A stretch of DNA of 63,845 nucleotides from Chloroflexia bacterium (GTDB lineage: Bacteria; Chloroflexota; Chloroflexia; QHBQ01), in assembly GCA_038229595.1 (NCBI GenBank), contig JBBROH010000003.1:1-63845 (forward strand), given 5' to 3'. Each line of letters opens with the position of its first letter. The first letter of the stretch is position 1. The notes beneath the pieces are model-generated. The model ran no database searches, was not told the DNA's origin, and was given only the letters and a program-made list of their open reading frames with translations. Both the position numbers and the translations under genes were made by a program. Of the stretch, positions 37,845 to 59,385 are shown in pieces.

Positions 37845-38025
37845 TCTAGCTCTATCACCATGTGGTGCAGCCCCGGCCACATCACCGCCTGGTACGCCAA
37901 TCAGCCGTCCGAGTAGTAGCTGTCAGCCTGCGGCAACGCCGCCACCACGTTCGCCAACGTCGCCGCATCTATGTCCGTCAGCACCGCTTGAGCGCAGCCG
38001 AACAGCAGTGCGTCTATGACTATGG
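37845..38025 (-). mobile_element. IS1-family insB remnant
   Basis: Reads VAALPQADSYYSDG*LAYQAVMWPG-x-H, homologous to the fragment at 59183-59385; in-frame stop. Confidence 0.55.
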
Positions 38026-48987: not shown

Positions 48988-49081
48988 CTACGGTGGGTTT
49001 TAGCTGTGCGAACCATAGGAGGTGATAAATTACGCCCCATACGCATCAAGGGAACGAGGCTAGAGCATCGGTAAAGTAACT

Positions 49082-49770
49082 TCAAGCGGCTGGCCCGCTG
49101 CCAGCCTGCCGCATTAGCACGTGCAGGTTGTGACCACTACTACCCGCCGCAAGTCCGCCGGGTTCTTTCGCTTGCCGATGTACCAGGCGCGGCAAGCCTT
49201 GCCACTGGCCGACATGAGCCAGCCTGTGTTCCACCGCCACCCGCTGCCTTAGCTCCGCCCGTCCCCTACTACGCAACTGCCGCTCACGTAGTTCCACCAG
49301 CAGCCGTTCGTCCGGGTGGATGCTCACGCTGCGTCCCCGTTCACTGCTCGTACACTGCGCCCGCAACGGACAAGCTCCACATACCTCGGCGGAGAACTGC
49401 ACCCGCCCCCTCCGCGAATGGCGTTTGCACCTGATTGTGGGGCAACACACTTCGCAGTACACCGTCAACTCTGGCGGGCGGCTGCGTACCAGCTTACTGC
49501 TCAGGTAGCCCCAGTCGATGTGCAACTCAGTCAACTGCACCGCTTGCCCTAGCAGGTCGGCCCTGATCTCGTCGCTCACACTTGCTTCCGGCTGATTGGC
49601 TGCCGTCAGCCCCACCGCTCGTATCAGCTCCAGGTCAAGCTCATACACCACATGACGTTTGTAGCCGTCGAAGCGCAGGCTGCGGCTTTTGCGCCCGTGC
49701 CGCATTTCGCTATCTTCGACTTCTTTGCCTACTTTGTGCGCCAGGCTCTCGCTCAGGTGAGCCGCCAGCG
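49082..49770 (-). mobile_element. IS1182/IS5-like DDE transposase remnant
   Basis: DSEMRHGRKSRS-x-RFDGYK-x-H, HID-x-GY, C-x-x-CPLRAQCT, LRQRVAVEH; N-terminus missing, apparent internal deletions. Confidence 0.7.
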
Positions 49771-50075
49771 TGACGACCTCAAGCTCATCAATGCTGACCT
49801 CTTGCTGAGGCACGAGCAGGAGCAAGAGGTGAGTGCTTCGGTGGCGGGCGCAATTACCAGCCTCAGTGCGGTCTCTAGTCAACAACTACGTAGCGCAAAC
49901 GAGCAGGCGGCTGCTCTCAGTCAGGTGACGATGGCTATTGAGGAGTTGGCCCAGACTGCCTACTCGATAGATGAGACGGCCAACCTGGTAGGCAAGGAGG
50001 CGCAGCAGGCACTCGATGAGCTAGCCAGTTCGCAGCAGGCTGTGAGCGACAGTGCGGCGCAGTTGACTACCCTTG
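49740..50075 (+). pseudogene. Methyl-accepting chemotaxis protein fragment
   Basis: SSQQ...EQAAALSQVTMAIEELAQTAYSI heptad signature; truncated at both ends, abutting the IS remnant. Confidence 0.55.
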
Positions 50076-50363: not shown

Positions 50364-53261
50364 TTAGGGTTGGCTCTCAACCGCCCGGCGCACGACCTTG
50401 CTCAGTTCGCCGCGCCGGATGTTGTCGTTGGGCCGGAAGCAGGTGCCAACCCCGCCGGGGCAAGCTGCACCATTAATGATGCTGCGTCCAGCCAGCGTCT
50501 CAATTGCGTTGTAGGCGAAGTTGTTGCTCGGCACGTCGGCGAAGGTCGGGGTCGGCGGGGTAGTTACGCGGTAGGCTCGCGCCCGCAGCACGATCACCGC
50601 CACCTGCGCCCGGCTGATGTTGACGTTTGGGCCGTAGCAAGAGCTGGCTGCACCGATGGCAGTACACTGCGCGGCGGTCAAGCCGTTGACGACCCCAGCG
50701 TGGTAGGCGGCTTCGACGTAGGGGTAGAAGACGTTGCCGCTACTCACATCGCTGAAGTCAGGAGCGATGGGGTTGTAAGCAGGGATGCCGAAGCCCAGGG
50801 CGGCGATCTTGGCGAACTGGCCGCGAGTGGTGTTAGCGTTGGGCTGGAAGCTGCCGTCGGGGAAGCCGCTGATTGCGCCGCGACAGGCGAGGAACTGGAT
50901 GTCGGCGTAGAAGATGTAAGTGCTGGGTACATCGCTGAAGTTGACGGTGCAGGCGGTTGCACTCGGCTGGGGGGTAGCAGTCGCGCCGCCGGGGGTTTGG
51001 GTCGCCTGCAAGGTAGCAGTTGAGCCAGCCGGGGTCTGGGTAGGCGCAGTGGTGTCGGTCGGTTGCAGCGTGTCAGTCGGCAGGGGGGTATTGGTCACGC
51101 CGACAGGGGTGTTGGTCGGCACCGGCGTAACCAGGTCGAAGCGAGTGACGAAGGCATCGCTACCACCGCCGCCGTAGGTAGTCTGACTGCCACTACCGAG
51201 GATCGGGAAGCCGCCGCCAGTGAGGCCAATGGCGTAGGTGTTACCTGCGCTATCTACTGCGCTGCCAGCACCCTGATCCAGGGTGTTGCCGCCGAGGTAA
51301 GTGGAGTAGAGCCGTACCCCTCGGTTGTCGATCCGGGCCACGAACGCATCGCTGCTACCACCGCCGAAGGTAGGCTGAGGCACATCTCCCCGGATCGGGA
51401 AGTTGTTGCTCTCGGTGCTGCCAACGACGGAGACGTTGCCTGCACCATCTACCGCAATGCCCCTACCGCCATCGAAGGCACTACCACCGAGGTAGGTGGA
51501 GTAAACCCGTGCGCCGGTGTTGCCCAGGGCAGTCACGAACGCATCATCAAGACCGCCACCGTAGCTGGTCTGCTCAGCATTGAGGAGCGGGAAACTGCCG
51601 CCTTCGGTGAGGCCAGTAATGTAGGCGTAACCAGCACCGATGGCGATGCCCATGCCCTGATCCTGAGCACTACCACCCAGGTAGGTAGAGTAGACCCGCA
51701 CTCCTACGCTGTTCATCTCAGTCACAAATGCATCATAGCCACCACCACCATAGGTGTTCTGACCACTACCCAGGGTCGGGAAGCCGCCCCCGGTATAGCC
51801 AGTGACGTAGGCATTGTCGCTGCTGTCTACGGCGATGCCTTGACCATAATCGGGACCGTTGCCGCCGAGGTAGGTAGAGTAAATCCGTGCGCCCGTAGGA
51901 CTAATGGACGTGACAAACGCATCGCCACTACCACCGTAGGTAGTTTGGCTGACACTACCCAGGATTGGAAAGTTGAGGCTGGCAGTGTGGCCGGTGACAT
52001 AGGCTTTGCCCGCGCCATCCACGCCGATGCCGTTACCAATATCGGTGTTGTTGCCGCCCAGGAAGGTGGAGTAGACCCGCCCCCCAGCCGCGTTGATCCT
52101 GGTTACAAACGCATCACCGCCGCCGCCGAGGGTGGTCTGGCTGACACTACCGAGGATGGGGAAGTCGGTGCTGCTGGTGTAGCCGGTGACATAGGCACCG
52201 CCTGCGCCGTCTACCGCAATGCCGCTACCAACATCGCTGCTGCTGCCGCCGAGGTACGTAGAGTAAACCCGTGCGCCGTTGCCGTCGATCTTGGTCACAA
52301 ACGCATCATTACTACCCCCGCCGAAGGTGGTTTGGCTGACGCTACCGAGGGTAGGAAAGTCGGTGCTATTGGTAGTGCCAACAACATAGGCGTTGCCTGC
52401 GTCGTCTACCGCGATGGCGCGACCAGTATCGCCGAGGGTGCTACCAAGATAGGTAGAGTAGCCGAGGGTGGGGTCAATCACCAACGCCAGGGCGCGGTCA
52501 TAGTTTGGCACCAGGAAGCTCACGCTGCCATCGGCCTGCAAGTGGTAGCTGCCTGCCACTGCCGTAAGCGAGCCATCAGCCTGCCGCTGGTAGATGCGGG
52601 CTGCTGCCTGACGCACGTCCCCCACCGCAGTGTGTAGTACCAGGTCGCTGCCACTGGTCTCGATCCGCTCGGCTCCGACCACCGCCAGCCTGATCTGGGC
52701 TGGGTCGGCACCGGGATTCACGATCAAGTCGTATTCAAGCTGACCCCCTGCGTCGGTGTACCAGGCCAGATCGATCCCGTCGTACACACCCTGGTAGCTA
52801 ACGCGGGCGTAGGCGGGTACATTCTCACGCCAGCGGCTGGGGTCGTTGCCGAGCAGGTAGTTGCTGACCCCGGCCAGTTTGTGGCTGGCGGCCAGTTGGG
52901 CACCCATCTTGCCGCCTTGCCACTGGAAGCGTAGGGTAGCAGTCTTGTCAGTCGTGGTCGCGTCGGGCTGACTATTGTGCAGCACCATCACTGCCTCAAC
53001 GTCGGTGAGGAACAGGTTGTAACCGGCTCCACGTGCCAGATAGCGCACGCTGGGGTCGAACTGGCCGAGATTCGGCTCGAAGCGCAGTGCTTGACTGTCA
53101 AGCAAAGCCTTGATGCCCGGTTGTGCCTTGCTCGTGGTGGCGCGGGGCTGGTTGGCTGGCTGGCTGATCGTCTGGCTGAGGTATAGCCCCACCAGGCTGA
53201 TGACTAGCATCATCGCCAATCCAACCTGCAGCCAAAGCCACGTTCGCTTGTTCGTCTGCAT
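50364..53261 (-). CDS. Secreted SBBP beta-propeller surface protein with Pro/Thr linker and C-terminal SLH domains
   Basis: Signal peptide; FEPNLGQ N-domain; about 7 YSTYLGG...GIAVD...YVTG-x-T-x-S-x-x-FP repeats; FSDVP...F-x-PN-x-N-x-TRGQ SLH repeats. Confidence 0.88.
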   Translation of the reverse strand: MQTNKRTWLWLQVGLAMMLVISLVGLYLSQTISQPANQPRATTSKAQPGIKALLDSQALRFEPNLGQFDPSVRYLARGAGYNLFLTDVEAVMVLHNSQPDATTTDKTATLRFQWQGGKMGAQLAASHKLAGVSNYLLGNDPSRWRENVPAYARVSYQGVYDGIDLAWYTDAGGQLEYDLIVNPGADPAQIRLAVVGAERIETSGSDLVLHTAVGDVRQAAARIYQRQADGSLTAVAGSYHLQADGSVSFLVPNYDRALALVIDPTLGYSTYLGSTLGDTGRAIAVDDAGNAYVVGTTNSTDFPTLGSVSQTTFGGGSNDAFVTKIDGNGARVYSTYLGGSSSDVGSGIAVDGAGGAYVTGYTSSTDFPILGSVSQTTLGGGGDAFVTRINAAGGRVYSTFLGGNNTDIGNGIGVDGAGKAYVTGHTASLNFPILGSVSQTTYGGSGDAFVTSISPTGARIYSTYLGGNGPDYGQGIAVDSSDNAYVTGYTGGGFPTLGSGQNTYGGGGYDAFVTEMNSVGVRVYSTYLGGSAQDQGMGIAIGAGYAYITGLTEGGSFPLLNAEQTSYGGGLDDAFVTALGNTGARVYSTYLGGSAFDGGRGIAVDGAGNVSVVGSTESNNFPIRGDVPQPTFGGGSSDAFVARIDNRGVRLYSTYLGGNTLDQGAGSAVDSAGNTYAIGLTGGGFPILGSGSQTTYGGGGSDAFVTRFDLVTPVPTNTPVGVTNTPLPTDTLQPTDTTAPTQTPAGSTATLQATQTPGGATATPQPSATACTVNFSDVPSTYIFYADIQFLACRGAISGFPDGSFQPNANTTRGQFAKIAALGFGIPAYNPIAPDFSDVSSGNVFYPYVEAAYHAGVVNGLTAAQCTAIGAASSCYGPNVNISRAQVAVIVLRARAYRVTTPPTPTFADVPSNNFAYNAIETLAGRSIINGAACPGGVGTCFRPNDNIRRGELSKVVRRAVESQP

Positions 53262-53279: not shown

Positions 53280-53513
53280 CTATTGTTTGCCGGGGGCGGG
53301 TTCAGTGATCGGTTCGCTCAAGGTCGGGACGCTCCCAACTAGAGTTGCGGGGTTAAGCAGAGCGGCGGTTAGCTGTGACAGGTCGGCGAAGTAGCGCAGG
53401 CTACCGCCGGGGATCGTCTCGACCGAGCCGCGCCACACCGCCGCTGCCTCCGGTTCGCGCCAGAGCCGCACAATAAAAACGTAGCGGTCACGCTGACCCC
53501 GTTTGCCTGCCAC
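53280..53513 (-). CDS. Small hypothetical protein (F-x-VRLWRE...WRGSVE...RYF-x-DL-x-x-L)
   Basis: AGGAGG RBS then GTG; compact 77-aa ORF between two surface-protein genes. Confidence 0.65.
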   Translation of the reverse strand: MAGKRGQRDRYVFIVRLWREPEAAAVWRGSVETIPGGSLRYFADLSQLTAALLNPATLVGSVPTLSEPITEPAPGKQ

Positions 53514-53596
53514 AGCCAACCCTCCTGTTGCTCACCGCTGGTTCTGACCAGCCACATCACAGGCGTAGCGGTTGGCTACGCCTGTTCCGTCGCTGC

Positions 53597-54949
53597 TTAC
53601 TTGAGGGTGACGATGACCGGGATCGCGCCAGTGCCGCTGTTGAGGTCGCCCAGAGCCTTGCCGATTACCGCCCCACTGGTCTTGCCGTCAGGGTCAGCCT
53701 TCATCGCATAGCCGGGATTGGTGCTGGCAACGAGCAGGTCGCCTGCCTTGATCGGGCCGAAGCTGGCATCCACCTTGACCGACTTGTAGCTGCCGAGGGT
53801 GACAGCGTTGATGTAGCCGCCGGTCGCCACCCCAGCCGCATCAGCTTGCGCCTCGACTGCTACTGCCTTGTCGCTGATTGTCTGCTGCGGGATGGTGACA
53901 GCCGCCGCCATCTGACCGCTCTGCTTCGCCGCAAGTTCGGTGGCATCGCGGCGGGCGAGGGCCGCCTTGATCGCGGCCTGCTCGGCAGCATAGTGGGCCT
54001 TCAGTTCGCTGCTGGGGACGTTGACTGCCGCATCCACCACCCCGACCACGCCGATGTCATACGCCCTCGTCGCCTTCCTGACGGTGATGACTGGCACGCT
54101 GCCCTGCGCCGGTGCGCTGCTGCCGACGATTACGACGATATCGCCCTGCGACAGCGGTTCGCTGCCGACGTTCTGCATGATGTCAACCACGTAGCCGGTC
54201 TTGGAGCCGCTGACGTTGAGGTCGCCACTCACAAACAGACCGCCGCCGATGTAAGCCGCAGCTGTGCTGGCTACACCGCCCGCTGGCTCAACCCACAGCG
54301 AGTAGGAGGCAGAGGCACCGGTTTTGGCTTGCACACCACGACTGCTGGTACTCAAACCGTATACGCCCCAACCGCCACCACCAGTGGAGGAGGCATACAC
54401 CGCCGGGCGATCAGTGTCGGCAGCCGATGCGAAAACGCCCTTGCCGCCCTCGAAGACCCCAGCAAAGCTGCCAGTAGCGGCACTACTACTAACCGCATAG
54501 CAGCCGGTGCCAGCGGTGATGCACGAACCGCGAACAGCATAGCCGCCACTACTGTTCGACACGCTGAGGGCAACAAAGTTGCTGGTAGTGATCACCAGCG
54601 AGTTGCCGATAGCGTTACCTATCTTCTGGCGACCGTTGTCGAGGAACTTGGCAAGCTGGCCGCGAGTCACATTGTCGCTGGGCAGGAAGTAGGGCAGGTT
54701 GGCCGGTGGCACACAGGGGTTGTTACCACCACAAGGATAGCCGCCGACGATGCCGTTGTCATACAGGCTGTTGATAAAGGGGGCGAACAGGTAGGTGTCC
54801 GGCACGTCTTGGAAGCGTTGCACGAGGGGGCTGCCAGGGGTGCCGCCTTGAGCCTGGGCCTGCCACGCACTACCGCTGAGGAGTAGGGTGAGGGTGAGGG
54901 CGAACACCGCCAGCAGGCGGCTACTACTAAACCGGGGGAAAGAACGCAT
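53597..54949 (-). CDS. Secreted SLH-domain protein with Gly-rich beta-repeat stalk and fibre-like C-terminal domain
   Basis: Signal peptide, RFQDVP...VTRGQLAKF SLH, GVYG/AVRG repeats, GDLLVASTNPGYAMKA...IGKAL tail; ATG after AAGGAG. Confidence 0.75.
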   Translation of the reverse strand: MRSFPRFSSSRLLAVFALTLTLLLSGSAWQAQAQGGTPGSPLVQRFQDVPDTYLFAPFINSLYDNGIVGGYPCGGNNPCVPPANLPYFLPSDNVTRGQLAKFLDNGRQKIGNAIGNSLVITTSNFVALSVSNSSGGYAVRGSCITAGTGCYAVSSSAATGSFAGVFEGGKGVFASAADTDRPAVYASSTGGGGWGVYGLSTSSRGVQAKTGASASYSLWVEPAGGVASTAAAYIGGGLFVSGDLNVSGSKTGYVVDIMQNVGSEPLSQGDIVVIVGSSAPAQGSVPVITVRKATRAYDIGVVGVVDAAVNVPSSELKAHYAAEQAAIKAALARRDATELAAKQSGQMAAAVTIPQQTISDKAVAVEAQADAAGVATGGYINAVTLGSYKSVKVDASFGPIKAGDLLVASTNPGYAMKADPDGKTSGAVIGKALGDLNSGTGAIPVIVTLK

Positions 54950-55210
54950 GATGTGTCTCCTTCTTGGATGAGTTGCTGCATTACCTCGTATTAGTGGTCT
55001 GGGTGGGGCGGCGCACAACCTTCGAGCGTCCGCCGCGTTCCGTGATGTGGTTGTGGTTGATCCGAATGCCCTGACCCCGACCGATGTCGGAGCGGCTGGT
55101 TCTAGCATAGCGCATGGGCGTTCGGCCGGCGTTCAGGCGGTGACGGGCTATGGCGCGAGCAGTTTAGGGCGTGAGCAGCAGCGGCGGCATGACAAAACAA
55201 ATCCCTACCC

Positions 55211-55287
55211 GCTAAAAGGGTAGAGATTTGGAGCTTCAGAGGGCAGATGGCATCCTTGTCAGGGTGGGGGTGCTAAAAGGGTAGAGA
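55211..55287. repeat. 16-bp perfect direct repeat GCTAAAAGGGTAGAGA
   Basis: Copies at 55211-55226 and 55272-55287; the first also forms a CTACCC-N7-GGGTAG hairpin. Confidence 0.75.
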
Positions 55288-55291
55288 CGAA

Positions 55292-55545
55292 TCAGTCTTC
55301 TACTTCGGCCTGCAACCAGTTGGCGACGCTCTGGCGGTTGACACCGAGAGAGCGGGCAATGGCACTGAGGCTGCGACCCTCGCGGTGCAGACGGCTAGCC
55401 TCGGCCCGCAAGTCGGGCTGATGACCCATAGGCTTGCGGCTGGGTGTGAAGTAACGTTGGCAGGCGCGGCATTGATAGCGTTGGCTGCCGCTGGGGTTGA
55501 GGCCTGCCTTGACCGTGTTCGTGTGCTGGCAGTATGTGCAAGCGG
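55292..55545 (-). mobile_element. IS1-family insA-derived segment, in frame with the regulator
   Basis: CxxC-N-K-x-G-x-x-x-x-G-x-QRY-x-CxxC zinc ribbon plus HTH typical of InsA. Confidence 0.7.
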
Positions 55546-58500
55546 TAGTGGGGGCGGGAGGCTGGTAGCCGGGAGCGGCGTAGGCGGGCCACTCGTCGCG
55601 CTCGTAAGCGGCCAGCATCTCGCGGTGGAAGTGGATGTTTAGGTAGTAGCTGCGCCACGCTGCGTCGGCATAGGTTGTCAGCTTGAGCGCGCTCTCAGCC
55701 AGAGCCGTGCTGAAGTAGCGGTGCGCTTCCGCCAGATAGTGGCGGCTCAACTGCTGCTCCCCGGCTGCCCTGTGGTAGCAGGCCAGTTGCCAGCAGAGGC
55801 GTTGGGGGTAGCTGTTGCTACCCTGCTCGGCCCACAACGCTGCCTGTTCGATTTGCTCGGCGATAGTACGGGCAGCAGGCAAGTCAGCCATTTGCAGCGC
55901 AGTCAGCAGCAGATAGGAGTTGGTCTCCTCCAATTCGCTCTGGCTGCCAGCGTGCTTGAGCCGCAGGCTGGCTTGCAGATTACGGCGGGCGGCGGCCAAA
56001 TTGCCCAGCATCACCTGCGCCGCGCCCAGATGCGAGTACAGAAACTCTTGATACCAACTGCTGGAGATAGCTTGCGCGAGGCGCAACCCCTCGCTGGCAG
56101 CCCGTTCAGCCCCGGCGAAGTCCCCGGCCCACAGGCTGTGGACGGCCAGTTGCAGCAACGCCGCCGCCTGACCACGCTGGTTGCCGCAGCTTGCATAGAG
56201 GGTTGCACTCTCTTGCAGCAAGGCCCGACCCCACTCGCTCTGCCCGATGATGTAGTGGACGATACCCAAACGAGCTAGTACCGCCGCCTCGCCCAGCGGT
56301 TTGCCAATTGCGACATAAATGCTTCTTGCTTGCTGGCAATGATCGAGGGCGGCCTGTACCTGCTGCTGATCTTCGGCGGCGGTTGCTAGCATGGCGTGGG
56401 CATCCGCTTCCCCACTGACATCATGGATCGCCTGGCAGAGGGTCAACAGTTCGTCAGCGAAGGTGTGGACGGCGGCATAATCAGCGTGAGCCTGAGCCGC
56501 GACGATGCTGGCCTGCACTATGCGCCGCAATGCGGGCCAGTCGGCAGCGGTGATGCAGGCGCGCGCAGCCTCAAGCAGTGCAGCCGCCCTGTCATACTGA
56601 AGCTCCCCGCTGGCGGCTTGACTGAGCCAGCAGTAGCAGGCCACCTGATTGCCCATCTCACCAAGCGTACCAAAGATGGCGAGGGCCGCTTCAAGATGCT
56701 GGCTAGCCGTCGCCTCTCCCCTGACCACTCCGCTGCTACCTTGCTGGAGAAGGGCGACCGCCTGCCAGTGGGGGTTGCCGTTGGTGGTCGCCAGCGAGAG
56801 CAGAGCCGCCGTCAGCGCATCGCGTTCGCTATGCTTGTCCATGATGGTTGCCAGCTTCAGCTTACGGTGCAGCACTTCAGCCTGCAACTCGGCCTCGCCA
56901 AGCTCCTCGGCGACAGCAGTCATCTGCTCCAAAAGGGCTTGCTGGGCTTCACGCCGCCCCAGCCGCTGGTAAATACCTTCTTGCAGAGCCAATAGTGCAA
57001 AGCAGCGATGTGGATCGTCACCGAGCAGCAGGGCGCGTTCGCTGAAGGTCAATGCCTCGCTGTCGGCATAGAGGCTCAACGCCTGTTGCGCCGCCTGCAA
57101 GTACCAACCTTGCGCCTGCTCATCCTCGCCACCCGCCGCAAAGTGCGCCGCGATCTCCGCCACTGGTTGCTGCGTCGCCTCGGCCAGCAACAAGCCGATG
57201 CGCCGATGTCGCCGCTGCCGACTGACTGGCTCGATCCCGCTGTAGATTGCCCCCTGGATCAGATGGTGGTTGAAGCTGTACTGACCGGCCTCACCTTCGC
57301 GCACCAGCCGTTGGTCAATCAACTCGTCGAGCGCACTGAGTACCCGACCCGCGCTCAACCCCACCGCCTCGCCAACCAGTTCCAGGCTGAAGCTGCTGCC
57401 GATCACACTGGCGACTTCGGCCACCAGCCGGGTATTACTGGGCAGGGGCGCGATCCGGCGGGCGAGTAGCTCCTGCACCTTGAGTGGCAACGGCTCCGCC
57501 TCCGCCATGTTCAACGCCTGCCCACCAGCCAGCCAGTTGTAGACCAGTTCGCCAAGGAAGAAGGGGTTGCCTTCGCTGACCCGATACCAGGCCGCCGCCA
57601 ACTCCTCACCCAACTCCTGCCCCGGCAACTGGGCTACCAACTCAGCGACCGCCGCTGCGGGCAAGCGGTCAAGCGCGATGTGCTGACTAGCTGCCGCGTT
57701 CCGGCGGCGCAAATCACGCAGGGGATGGTCACGCCCAGCTTCCTCCTCGCGGTAGGTAGCGACGATCAGGATCGGGTTACCCGCTGTGCGACCAACCAGA
57801 AATTGCAGCAGGTTGATGCTTGCCTGCCCCGCCCAGTGCAGGTCTTCGAGGATGAGCAGCAGCGGGCGGCTGGCCGCCAGGCTGGTGAGGCATTCGCTGA
57901 CCGCCAGGTAGAGACGGTCACGTTCGCGCTCAGGTTCAAGCGGGGGCAGCGGAGTGATCTGCTGGTTCGCCAGTTCAGGGAGCAGTGGCAGGATCGCCCG
58001 CAGAGTGGCGAGCGCGACTCTGCTCGACTTAAGCAGCGGCATAGCCGCCCGCAGCACAGCGGCCAACGCCTGATAGGCATGACCTTCACCTTCCGTCGTG
58101 CCGCCACGCAGTACCCAGCCACCCTGCTCCAGCACGACCGAGGCCAACTCTGCACTCAAACGAGACTTGCCGACCCCGGCCTCGCCCGCGAGGAAGTAGA
58201 GTAGACCGCGCCCATTGGCCGCTTGCTGCCAGGCGGCAATCAGCAAACCAAGCTCCGGCTGGCGGCCAACAAAGGGCAGGCCCAGTGGCAGCGGCCCAGC
58301 GGTGGCTGGTGGCAGGGGCGCAGCGAAGGTGGGCAAGGGTTGGTCGCTGCGGATTGCATCGTAGAGAGCGGTGGTCTCGACCATCGGCACAGCGGCTAGT
58401 TCGGCTGCAAGGCGGGCGGCGAACTGGCTGTAAGTTGCCAATGCAGAGGCACGATCCCCCATCGCGTAGCGCACGGCCATCAACTGGCGCGTCATCTGCT

Positions 58501-59038
58501 CATGGAGGGGGTCGCGGGCGAGCAGTTGCGCGGCGAAGTGGCTGGCAGCGGGGTAGTCGCGCTGGCGGTGACACTCCTCAACCAGACGTTCCAGGCAGGA
58601 TTGGTAGCTGTAGCGCAGCCACTCGCGGGCGTAGAACAGCCAGTCGGCGTAGAGGTCGGGCAGCAGGTCAGCACGGTAGAGGGCAACGGCCTCAGCCAGA
58701 TGCTCAGGGGCAGCGGCCAGCCGCTCGAAGTCGGCGACATCCAGCCAGTAGTCGCTGGCAGTATTCCACTGCACGGTATCGGCGGTGGTCAGCAGCCAGC
58801 TTTCAGCCGGGGGCAGGGCATGGCGCAACTGGTGCAAGGTGCGGCGCAGGTGGTTGCGGGCGGCTGCTTCGGGGCTGTCGGGCCAAAGGGTGTAGGCAAG
58901 TGTATCACGGCGCAGCGGGGTATGACGGTTGAGCAGCAGGTAGACAAGCAAGGGGGTAGTTTTGCTCGGAGCAGGCAGCAACAACGATTGCCCTTGCCAG
59001 GTTAGCTCAAGCTGACCCAAGAGGTGGATGTGCAGCAT
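55292..59038 (-). CDS. SARP/AfsR-type regulator: wHTH-BTAD - STAND AAA ATPase - TPR, fused to an IS1 InsA-like Zn-finger/HTH
   Basis: LHIHLLGQLEL, ALYRADLL, DPLHEQMTRQLM, GEAGVGKSRL, LILEDLHWA, SEGNPFFL, TPRs, then CTYC...GLNPSGSQRYQCRAC...SLSAIARSLGVNRQSVANW. Confidence 0.88.
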   Translation of the reverse strand: MLHIHLLGQLELTWQGQSLLLPAPSKTTPLLVYLLLNRHTPLRRDTLAYTLWPDSPEAAARNHLRRTLHQLRHALPPAESWLLTTADTVQWNTASDYWLDVADFERLAAAPEHLAEAVALYRADLLPDLYADWLFYAREWLRYSYQSCLERLVEECHRQRDYPAASHFAAQLLARDPLHEQMTRQLMAVRYAMGDRASALATYSQFAARLAAELAAVPMVETTALYDAIRSDQPLPTFAAPLPPATAGPLPLGLPFVGRQPELGLLIAAWQQAANGRGLLYFLAGEAGVGKSRLSAELASVVLEQGGWVLRGGTTEGEGHAYQALAAVLRAAMPLLKSSRVALATLRAILPLLPELANQQITPLPPLEPERERDRLYLAVSECLTSLAASRPLLLILEDLHWAGQASINLLQFLVGRTAGNPILIVATYREEEAGRDHPLRDLRRRNAAASQHIALDRLPAAAVAELVAQLPGQELGEELAAAWYRVSEGNPFFLGELVYNWLAGGQALNMAEAEPLPLKVQELLARRIAPLPSNTRLVAEVASVIGSSFSLELVGEAVGLSAGRVLSALDELIDQRLVREGEAGQYSFNHHLIQGAIYSGIEPVSRQRRHRRIGLLLAEATQQPVAEIAAHFAAGGEDEQAQGWYLQAAQQALSLYADSEALTFSERALLLGDDPHRCFALLALQEGIYQRLGRREAQQALLEQMTAVAEELGEAELQAEVLHRKLKLATIMDKHSERDALTAALLSLATTNGNPHWQAVALLQQGSSGVVRGEATASQHLEAALAIFGTLGEMGNQVACYCWLSQAASGELQYDRAAALLEAARACITAADWPALRRIVQASIVAAQAHADYAAVHTFADELLTLCQAIHDVSGEADAHAMLATAAEDQQQVQAALDHCQQARSIYVAIGKPLGEAAVLARLGIVHYIIGQSEWGRALLQESATLYASCGNQRGQAAALLQLAVHSLWAGDFAGAERAASEGLRLAQAISSSWYQEFLYSHLGAAQVMLGNLAAARRNLQASLRLKHAGSQSELEETNSYLLLTALQMADLPAARTIAEQIEQAALWAEQGSNSYPQRLCWQLACYHRAAGEQQLSRHYLAEAHRYFSTALAESALKLTTYADAAWRSYYLNIHFHREMLAAYERDEWPAYAAPGYQPPAPTTACTYCQHTNTVKAGLNPSGSQRYQCRACQRYFTPSRKPMGHQPDLRAEASRLHREGRSLSAIARSLGVNRQSVANWLQAEVED

Positions 59039-59182
59039 CGGTACGCGCTCCAATGTTAAGCCTTGTGCTGATTATACCCGATGCCACCACTGTGGTTGGC
59101 AGCCAGTTGATCACCGAATACTGCTGCCCAGTGTGTGACTACAGCATAGCTGATGTAGCGCAGTATGTAGCTAGCCGCTATC

Positions 59183-59385
59183 TTACTGCCGCAACTGCGC
59201 GTTCATCCCTTCTAGCGGGTACGTGTTACGCTTACCAGCACTCACCTCGTGCCGCCCACCGCCCGGCCACGCCAAGTGCTGATGAACCGCCAGCCCGTCA
59301 CTGTAGTACACCTCGGCTGCTGGCAAGCTGTCGGCTAATAACTGCATCGTCGCTTGCTCCCGACTCTCCACTACTTCGCAGCGCG
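59183..59385 (-). mobile_element. IS1-family insB remnant
   Basis: EVYYSDGLAVH-x-x-L-x-WPGG-x-H-x-V-x-x-GK-x-NTY-x-LEG-x-NAQLRQ; truncated at both ends. Confidence 0.65.

Follow-up and report, generated by a model that had tools for sequence, protein, structure and literature searches.

A SARP-STAND regulator from a Chloroflexota clade ends in an IS1 InsA-like zinc ribbon and helix-turn-helix, a probable exapted second DNA-binding domain

STAND regulators of the MalT/LAL type combine a STAND NTPase with a helical sensor and a C-terminal helix-turn-helix (HTH) as DNA-binding output; this HTH is of the LuxR/GerE type and is the sole DNA-binding domain of the protein. The large SARPs of Streptomyces such as AfsR carry an N-terminal SARP domain, a central NOD/AAA ATPase and C-terminal TPRs, and in AfsR the C-terminal NOD and TPR parts inhibit the SARP domain until ATP binds (PMC10936776). 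AfsR is actinobacterial, ends at the TPRs without a second DNA-binding domain and controls afsS and antibiotic genes. SARP target promoters carry direct repeats spaced in 11-bp phase, of which the 3' one stands about 8 bp from the -10 element (7-8 bp at AfsR target promoters) (PMC10936776). EmbR of M. tuberculosis, a SARP with an extra C-terminal FHA domain, provides a precedent for an added C-terminal module, although FHA binds phosphopeptides rather than DNA and EmbR lacks NOD and TPR parts (PMC10936776). In the insertion sequence IS1, InsA and the N-terminal domain of InsAB' consist of a CxxC...CxxC zinc ribbon followed by an HTH, and in E. coli InsA both parts are required for inverted repeat (IR)-specific binding; InsA acts as a repressor of the IS1 promoter and, at either end of the element, as a competitor of the transposase (PMC12428005). 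Finally, the eukaryotic regulators FHY3/FAR1 arose from MULE transposases, whose DNA-binding domain was kept as a host regulator (PMC13306707); there, a whole transposase was recycled.

Here we describe a bacterial locus that joins the large SARP/STAND regulators and IS1 InsA, both of which are already known, in a fusion that is apparently new. Our literature search found no description of an InsA-type domain fused to a SARP/STAND regulator, nor of a domesticated InsA domain, although such absence is not proof of novelty. The locus lies in a 63,845-nt stretch of a Chloroflexia bacterium (GenBank assembly GCA_038229595.1, contig JBBROH010000003.1), the whole of which we call the window; its features are collected in Table 1. 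The regulator is encoded by a minus-strand ORF (55292..59053) of 1253 open codons, for which gene callers place the likely ATG start at 59038, giving 1248 aa. Pfam detects the BTAD domain above its cut-off (E 1.7e-14) and AAA_16 with 89 bits (E 6e-25), while the wHTH match (Trans_reg_C) is weak, with an E-value of 8.5e-4 and 19.8 bits versus a curated cut-off of 26.2. TPR_12 is detected in close homologues, and the AF2 model of the regulator shows helical repeats. With a SARP domain, a central P-loop NOD and C-terminal TPRs all in place, the domain content assigns the protein to the large SARP/AfsR-like STAND regulators. The similarity to AfsR itself is partial (26 bits with the NCBIfam AfsR model, whose cut-off is 1430). 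By analogy with AfsR, the NOD/TPR part is expected to gate the SARP domain via ATP, and the regulator is predicted to activate transcription in response to ATP. Unlike AfsR, it does not end at the TPRs and is found beside SLH surface-protein genes. It resembles the MalT/LAL proteins in having a STAND NTPase, a helical sensor and a C-terminal HTH, with the difference that the transposase-like HTH is additional to an N-terminal SARP domain. The parallel with FHY3/FAR1 would be limited in that only a DNA-binding head appears to have been grafted onto a bacterial regulator.

Table 1. Coordinates of the regulator gene, its domains and the neighbouring features. Positions are those of the window, except for the family SARP boxes, which are given by locus.
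Feature	Position	Strand	Evidence or remark
Regulator gene	55292..59038	-	1248 aa: SARP (wHTH+BTAD), AAA_16 NOD, TPR/helical repeats, linker, IS1-type zinc ribbon + HTH
N-terminal SARP domain, aa 1-250	58289..59038	-	weak OmpR-type wHTH + BTAD (Pfam)
AAA_16 / STAND nucleotide-binding domain	57761..58276	-	Pfam; Walker A GEAGVGKS
TPR-like helical sensor region	55619..57181	-	partial AfsR and HaaT TPR matches (NCBIfam); helical in AF2
LLAAYERDEWPAYA motif, native C-terminus of the tail-less family and fusion point	55577..55618	-	tail-less relatives stop 0-20 aa past the motif
Pro-rich linker APGYQPPAPTTA	55541..55576	-	lineage-variable; predicted disordered, pLDDT below 50
IS1/IS1595-type zinc ribbon (C1167, C1170, C1190, C1193)	55445..55540	-	Pfam, NCBIfam, AF2
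Three-helix HTH (HTH_23), homologous to IS1 InsA HTH	55307..55414	-	Pfam, NCBIfam, AF2, Foldseek
IS1 terminal inverted repeat-like GGGGGTGCTAAAAGGGTAGAGA, includes repeat copy 1 (55272-55287)	55266..55287	+	outer to inner
Intrinsic terminator of the regulator gene	55189..55230	-	13-bp stem + T-run; -21 kcal/mol, z -4.0
Candidate SARP-box promoter, GAACGCC-GGCC-GAACGCC, 7 nt, TATGCT	55104..55134	-	full GAACGCC-GGCC-GAACGCC-CATGCGC-TATGCT
First downstream gene, secreted SLH-domain protein	53597..54949	-	good RBS, signal peptide
Small 'VRLW...WRGSVE...YF' protein	53280..53519	-	conserved beside family regulators
DUF7948 / beta-propeller / SLH surface protein, last cassette gene	50364..53261	-	
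IS1 transposase (DDE/insB) fragment, residues 138-199	59189..59374	-	tblastn, 52% to the genome's own IS1
Family SARP boxes	L016 4013-4043; L034 about 9417; L030 about 5800; L037 about 4421		
Further family SARP boxes	L044 5438-5469; L047, L050, L052, L055		

A sequence-only reading of the window had noted that the regulator runs without a stop through the Pro-rich linker into a complete InsA-like domain (CxxC...CxxC plus HTH), and the ORF, Pfam and NCBIfam data bear this out: the stretch it had singled out (55292-55545) is the stop codon plus the last 84 codons and corresponds to the entire zinc ribbon and HTH. Within this tail, Pfam finds Zn_ribbon_InsA and HTH_23, and the NCBIfam model IS1_IS1595_Zn matches above its curated cut-off. 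The last ~80 residues align to positions 1-78 of the 199 of the NCBIfam model transpos_IS1 (E 2e-15 for the whole protein, 2e-17 for the tail alone), a match that ends where the DDE domain would start. The four cysteines are invariant across all relatives and the HTH recognition helix (...V.NWL) is conserved in all lineages, while the linker varies; the HTH differs consistently from that of genuine IS1 copies. In the AF2 model, the tail is a zinc ribbon and three-helix HTH (pLDDT 85) that remains undocked at the end of its disordered linker. Foldseek returned sub-domain matches for the tail, all to DNA-bound domains (Dof, DeoR and the HTHs of IstA, Tc3 and Hin), with no whole-domain match and E-values of at least 0.08, and a PDB sequence search gave marginal HTH matches only.

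The same reading had stated that neither insB nor an IS left end accompanies the tail, and we arrived at the same result. A tblastn search with two IS1 transposases revealed no DDE/insB remnant in the 340 nt from the stop codon to the next gene, nor was a DDE remnant found after the tail in any tail-bearing lineage examined. At the junction, the best match to a left end is a 7-mer, a score reached by 171 of 300 shuffles. The tail is single copy, and the best IS1 copy elsewhere in the 4.25-Mb MAG is only 45% identical to it. Compared with IS1 InsA, the tail is not a free protein of 90-125 aa and not part of a mobile unit; it lacks the DDE domain and the left end, and it sits as a single copy behind a 1150-aa regulator, where it is vertically conserved.

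To see how widespread the fusion is, proteins of this BTAD-AAA-TPR type ending in the tail were searched for, as the sequence-only reading had proposed. A word-seeded tail search requiring full-length proteins yielded two more proteins of 1227-1263 aa with the same architecture; an exhaustive HMMER search with the last 140 aa against 1.8 billion cluster representatives added three (P0006, P0007 and P0012), and a full-length search added P0153. The tail is present in seven 90%-clusters (P0002, P0003, P0153, P0004, P0006, P0007 and P0012) that are 38-75% identical to the window protein. The window product itself (P0002) is a singleton from one contig; the other six clusters come from NCBI, JGI, ENA and Logan, and four of them are found on several contigs or in several assemblies. 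One member, PZS04573.1, is from a Candidatus Chloroheliales MAG and is annotated 'hypothetical protein'. Orthologues do not stop short of the tail, and the fusion is not unique: a genome of the same genus, G001, holds an orthologue with the tail as well as a 40%-identical tail-bearing paralogue, and the tail recurs in four further diverged lineages. By contrast with these proteins, about 110 relatives among the matches listed, of 909 at E below 1e-30, have no tail. These listed tail-less relatives are 1100-1200 aa long, cover only 92% of the query and end 0-20 residues after FNRELLAAYERGEWP; their C-terminus reads ...LLAAYERxEWP, and the FNRELLAAYERGEWP motif is the fusion point.

In a tree of the protein bodies with the tails removed, all seven tail-bearing clusters fall into one clade of 10 rows with support 100, which also includes two tail-less members and one C-terminally truncated sequence. 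This pattern fits a single gain with vertical inheritance thereafter. A tree restricted to the 80-aa module, meant to trace the tails and their IS1 donor, had too few columns to discriminate and is compatible with one origin of the tails. Between the window protein and the G001 orthologue (dS about 0.8), the whole protein has a dN/dS of 0.195, compared with 0.13 in the tail and 0.09 in its zinc ribbon. By this comparison, purifying selection on the tail is no weaker than on the remainder of the protein. No further fusion was found in 400 genomes sampled across the phylum, with 8 candidates scored per genome; the fusion is rare and known from the window's own genus and from metagenomic lineages, at least one of them Chloroheliales. 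Sequence comparison thus establishes the fusion as real, old, confined to one clade and under purifying selection. The clade-wide occurrence of the tail and the purifying selection on it support the earlier suggestion that a transposase DNA-binding module was domesticated, and homology predicts that the tail is very probably an old, selected, IS1-homologous second DNA-binding domain.

We next consider what such a regulator might act on. Downstream of the gene, ~75 nt beyond the second of two repeat copies described below, lies a box of two GAACGCC heptads in 11-nt phase that is essentially unique in both the window genome and G001. Its geometry is canonical, matching the published rule for SARP targets, which makes it a candidate SARP target. 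No sigma-70 consensus promoter is predicted at the box, which fits activator dependence. An equivalent box, mostly with GGACGNN heptads, is present downstream of the regulator in 10 of 10 family loci examined, with or without a tail, the family pattern being two G[GA]ACGNN heptads in 11-nt phase, 7-8 nt and TAnnnT. Searched on both strands, the whole window yields only 5 hits to a loose regular expression for the box. The distance from stop codon to box is 110-280 nt at tail-bearing loci; at the tail-less ones it is 3 and 13 nt in two cases and about 120 nt in two others.

The likely target of the SARP-box promoter is the SLH gene directly behind it, which is followed by the small protein and then the propeller-SLH protein. 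The small protein is roughly 70-80 aa long, has the motif (H/R)xFIVR(L/V/I)W...WRGS(V/L)E...(R)YF and belongs to no Pfam family. In many loci this RLW protein is encoded right behind the SARP box (L031 4096-4323, L030 5869-6090, L047, L052 and L044 from 5526); in L044, gene calling makes it the N-terminus of a 615-aa protein, and its L034 frame seems to be disrupted. The family box likely marks a regulon of the small RLW protein plus SLH or secreted proteins. Relative to G001 (L016 4044-4332), the window interval 54950-55103 lacks the small RLW gene, as well as a 657-aa FG-GAP/SLH gene after the box. The RLW gene of the window lies one gene further on than in G001. The target cassette thus differs in arrangement between two congeneric species.

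Between the regulator gene and the SARP box, the DNA carries a possible second signature of IS1. GGGGGTGCTAAAAGGGTAGAGA begins 4 nt past the stop codon and points into the tail, i.e., it has right-end orientation relative to the tail, and resembles the terminal inverted repeat that would be cognate to an InsA domain. We derived IS1 IRs from seven intact IS1 copies of the same order (consensus GGGAGTGRCTAAAAGRGTAG); against one of these, GGGGGTGCTAAAAGGGTAGAGA aligns with a single gap and 17 identities in 19 positions, and the consensus pattern occurs once in the window. Of 200 dinucleotide shuffles of the region, 5 match the score (maximum over 13 IRs, both strands; p about 0.03). The IR resemblance is therefore moderately significant, and it is seen only in the window/G001 pair. 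The inner 16 nt alone recur as copy 2 (55211-55226), where they make up the 5' arm and loop of the terminator. This 16-nt repeat, at 55211 and 55272, is exact with a 61-nt spacing, and its 15-nt core occurs at no other site in the genome. Downstream of the G001 orthologue, the same repeat pair is present with the same 61-nt spacing and is found nowhere else in G001. Between the two species, copy 1 is identical at 16/16 and copy 2 at 15/16 positions, while the DNA between the copies is 43% identical. The conservation of copy 2 is probably due at least partly to its role in the terminator stem. With an InsA head, no insB, no detectable left end and a right end that seems to be kept and partly duplicated, the gene has a 3' end resembling an IS1 that has suffered an internal deletion.

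Beyond this species pair, the picture is less uniform. In the P0007 lineage, a significant direct-repeat pair (19/22) lies between the stop codon and the SARP box, a score reached by 0 of 200 shuffles. Repeats at this position are weak for P0004 and P0012 (p about 0.1), none were found for P0153 and P0006, and none of these four lineages is significantly IR-like. Visual inspection suggests that CT-rich repeats at L030, L034, L037 and L055 are related to those of the window; we do not claim a family-wide operator, as repeat tests, IR-likeness and motif transfer were non-significant beyond the window/G001 pair and L055. A third candidate operator, GCTAGAAGGGATGA at 59203-59216, constitutes with the two downstream copies the only three matches in the genome to a 14-mer pattern, and was dropped as evidence, since the same DNA is ordinary coding sequence (T-I-E-G-M-N) of intact IS1 insB genes.

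Some further differences between the two species were observed. In G001, the regulator ORF runs 16 codons longer, through IR copy 1, and the promoter region of the orthologue is unrelated to that of the window. Orthologue contigs from three independent assemblies (L031-L033) share one break point, located 130 nt upstream of the gene; inside the same sequence, but 50 nt nearer to the gene (80 nt upstream of it), the G001 contig L016 ends. These shared breaks suggest a repeat boundary, possibly of an IS.

Taken together, the best explanation in our view, to which we assign a probability of roughly 0.65, is that the tail is an exapted IS1 InsA domain serving as a second DNA-binding module. An IS1-family element would have inserted at the extreme 3' end of a SARP-NOD-TPR regulator gene in the ancestor of a small, Chloroheliales-related Chloroflexota clade, the InsA part (zinc ribbon and HTH) becoming fused in frame after the native ...AAYERDEWPAYA motif via a flexible linker. 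The catalytic DDE part would have been lost and the fusion retained by selection as a second DNA-binding domain. Since there is no IS left end at the junction, this insertion history is one that we infer; descent could also have run in the reverse direction, with the IS1 head deriving from a cellular module.

How might the two ends of the protein cooperate? The SARP end would act on the SARP box as in AfsR, with the STAND/TPR part gating the SARP domain, and the tail would bind the two 16-mers, which lie ~75 and 135 nt upstream of the box. Tail binding would tether or pre-position the regulator, or loop or bend the DNA, and so allow the SARP dimer, once activated by ATP, to engage the box; the two tails of a SARP dimer would match the two 16-mers. 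The sequence-only reading had raised the possibility of binding to IS ends or looping, and circumstantial support comes from the repeat being IS1-end-like, conserved between species and placed between the gene and the SARP-box promoter. On this basis and by analogy with InsA, we tentatively regard the IS1-end-derived 16-mers as a predicted operator for the tail, at somewhat less than even odds for the binding step.

A different target for the tail is conceivable, namely real IS1 elements: the protein might be a host InsA-like inhibitor of IS1 transposition or transcription, or might link the regulator to IS1 ends genome-wide. E. coli InsA has just these repressing and competing activities (PMC12428005), the IRL of the resident IS1 (GGGGAGTGGCTAGAAGGGCATAC) resembles the site beside the gene, and IS1 relics occur near several family loci. 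However, such a role has no evident need for a 1150-aa SARP-STAND body, the HTH of the tail is consistently unlike that of genuine IS1 copies, and the conserved sites are the IR-like ones beside the gene; moreover, IS copies are under-represented in MAGs, which limits any view of such a regulon. We consider this improbable. Only a small chance likewise attaches to the idea that the tail no longer binds DNA and instead serves the STAND switch as an internal latch, or as a module for protein interaction or oligomerisation. The weak conservation of the operator across lineages would agree with this, protein contacts are often mediated by zinc ribbons, and there is the precedent of AfsR, in which the C-terminal parts hold the SARP domain inactive until ATP binds. 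Against it, the cysteine ligands and the recognition helix are both conserved, the modelled tail is undocked on a disordered linker, and its structural neighbours are DNA-bound HTHs.

IS1 debris around the gene raises the question whether the regulator was cargo of a composite transposon, with an upstream insB relic and the insA tail plus right end (IRR) as remains of two flanking IS1 copies and the fusion as a side-effect. The insB fragment in question lies directly upstream of the regulator in the same orientation, and the 52%-identical P0153 gene has an equivalent upstream relic (L034 5205-5456), which retains a right-end IR (TTAGCCAGTCCC) of its own. Both loci also have the -10 region GGTATAATCAGCACA in common. 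A 61-nt block is 92% identical between the two relics; as this stretch is also highly conserved among intact IS1 copies, no functional conclusion can be drawn from it. The relic is absent from the other four lineages, i.e., it is present in only 2 of 6, whereas the tail is present in all, and its IR type (TTAGCCAGTCCC) is unlike the IR beside the tail. In addition, tail-less relatives share the layout from regulator to SARP box to target, arguing that the gene was not imported alone. By these sequence features, the upstream relic more likely stems from an insertion of its own than from the element that donated the tail, and a composite-transposon origin is quite improbable, although such a history would be compatible with later exaptation. 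IS debris is abundant throughout the window: two more IS1 transposase relics with in-frame stops were found by tblastn at 37853-37993 (-) and 49037-49093 (-), and a DDE_Tnp_1_6 transposase ORF lies at 49082-49885.

This abundance of IS1 debris in genome and window, together with the IS-end-like sequence after the stop codon, could point to a recent accident, namely insertion of an IS1 copy at the gene's 3' end, with the tail as neutral or harmful read-through or an incipient pseudogene; we reject this as very improbable given a tail that is shared by seven diverged clusters of one clade, has a dN/dS of 0.13, is only 45% identical to the best IS1 copy of the genome and has no insB left. An assembly chimera joining the regulator to an IS1 copy at a repeat, for which the 318-contig MAG and the frequency of IS-induced misjoins might speak, is hardly credible and is likewise rejected, since identical junction architecture recurs in independent ENA, Logan, JGI and NCBI assemblies, with junction motif and linker evolving in step with the gene.

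The preferred reading, an exapted InsA domain as second DNA-binding module, may be viewed beside other occurrences of the same module. An IS1-type zinc ribbon and HTH is found at the C-terminus of an XRE-NB-ARC-TPR protein (P0080) and a DUF7779/NB-ARC-TPR_12 protein (P0134), and also ends TPR_12-only proteins, a Wzy_C membrane protein and a Big_3_5 protein with a TM segment; P0029, P0079, P0144, P0064 and P0120 are, like P0080 and P0134, proteins with this C-terminus in other architectures. No insB follows the module in P0080 and P0134, which are singletons or near-singletons. These other architectures may represent either conserved families or read-through accidents. Six more proteins (P0005, P0021, P0025, P0031, P0038 and P0131) have 4-9 tandem copies of the IS1-type zinc ribbon or HTH alone, with P0005 (465 aa) containing eight near-identical HTH repeats after a signal-like N-terminus. 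The broadest reading is that IS1 exaptation gave both the tail in trans and the IS-end sites in cis, and that the zinc ribbon-HTH module has repeatedly been added to the C-terminus of several unrelated proteins, both NLR-like STAND/TPR and membrane proteins. We regard this as speculative, with the odds clearly against it; if true, bacteria would possess a class of output or tether domains of transposon origin that has so far gone unrecognised.

Transposase-derived transcription factors are textbook examples in eukaryotes and are, to our knowledge, hardly documented in bacteria, so that the regulator would be a rare bacterial case of a transposon part turned into regulatory hardware. Bacterial ORFs with an IS1-like zinc ribbon and HTH are routinely annotated as 'transposase' or 'hypothetical protein', and a practical warning from this locus is that Zn_ribbon_InsA/HTH_23 matches are not always mobile-element genes. 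The example is testable: it offers a defined fusion point, a conserved clade with tail-less sisters as natural controls, and a candidate IS-end-derived operator that lies only about 75 nt from a SARP-box promoter. It is also relevant to the wiring of bacterial NLR-like STAND switches to DNA: two sites could be tethered, looped or integrated by a regulator that has a DNA-binding domain at each end, and the presence of the module in NB-ARC/TPR and membrane proteins hints that the toolkit may be wider.
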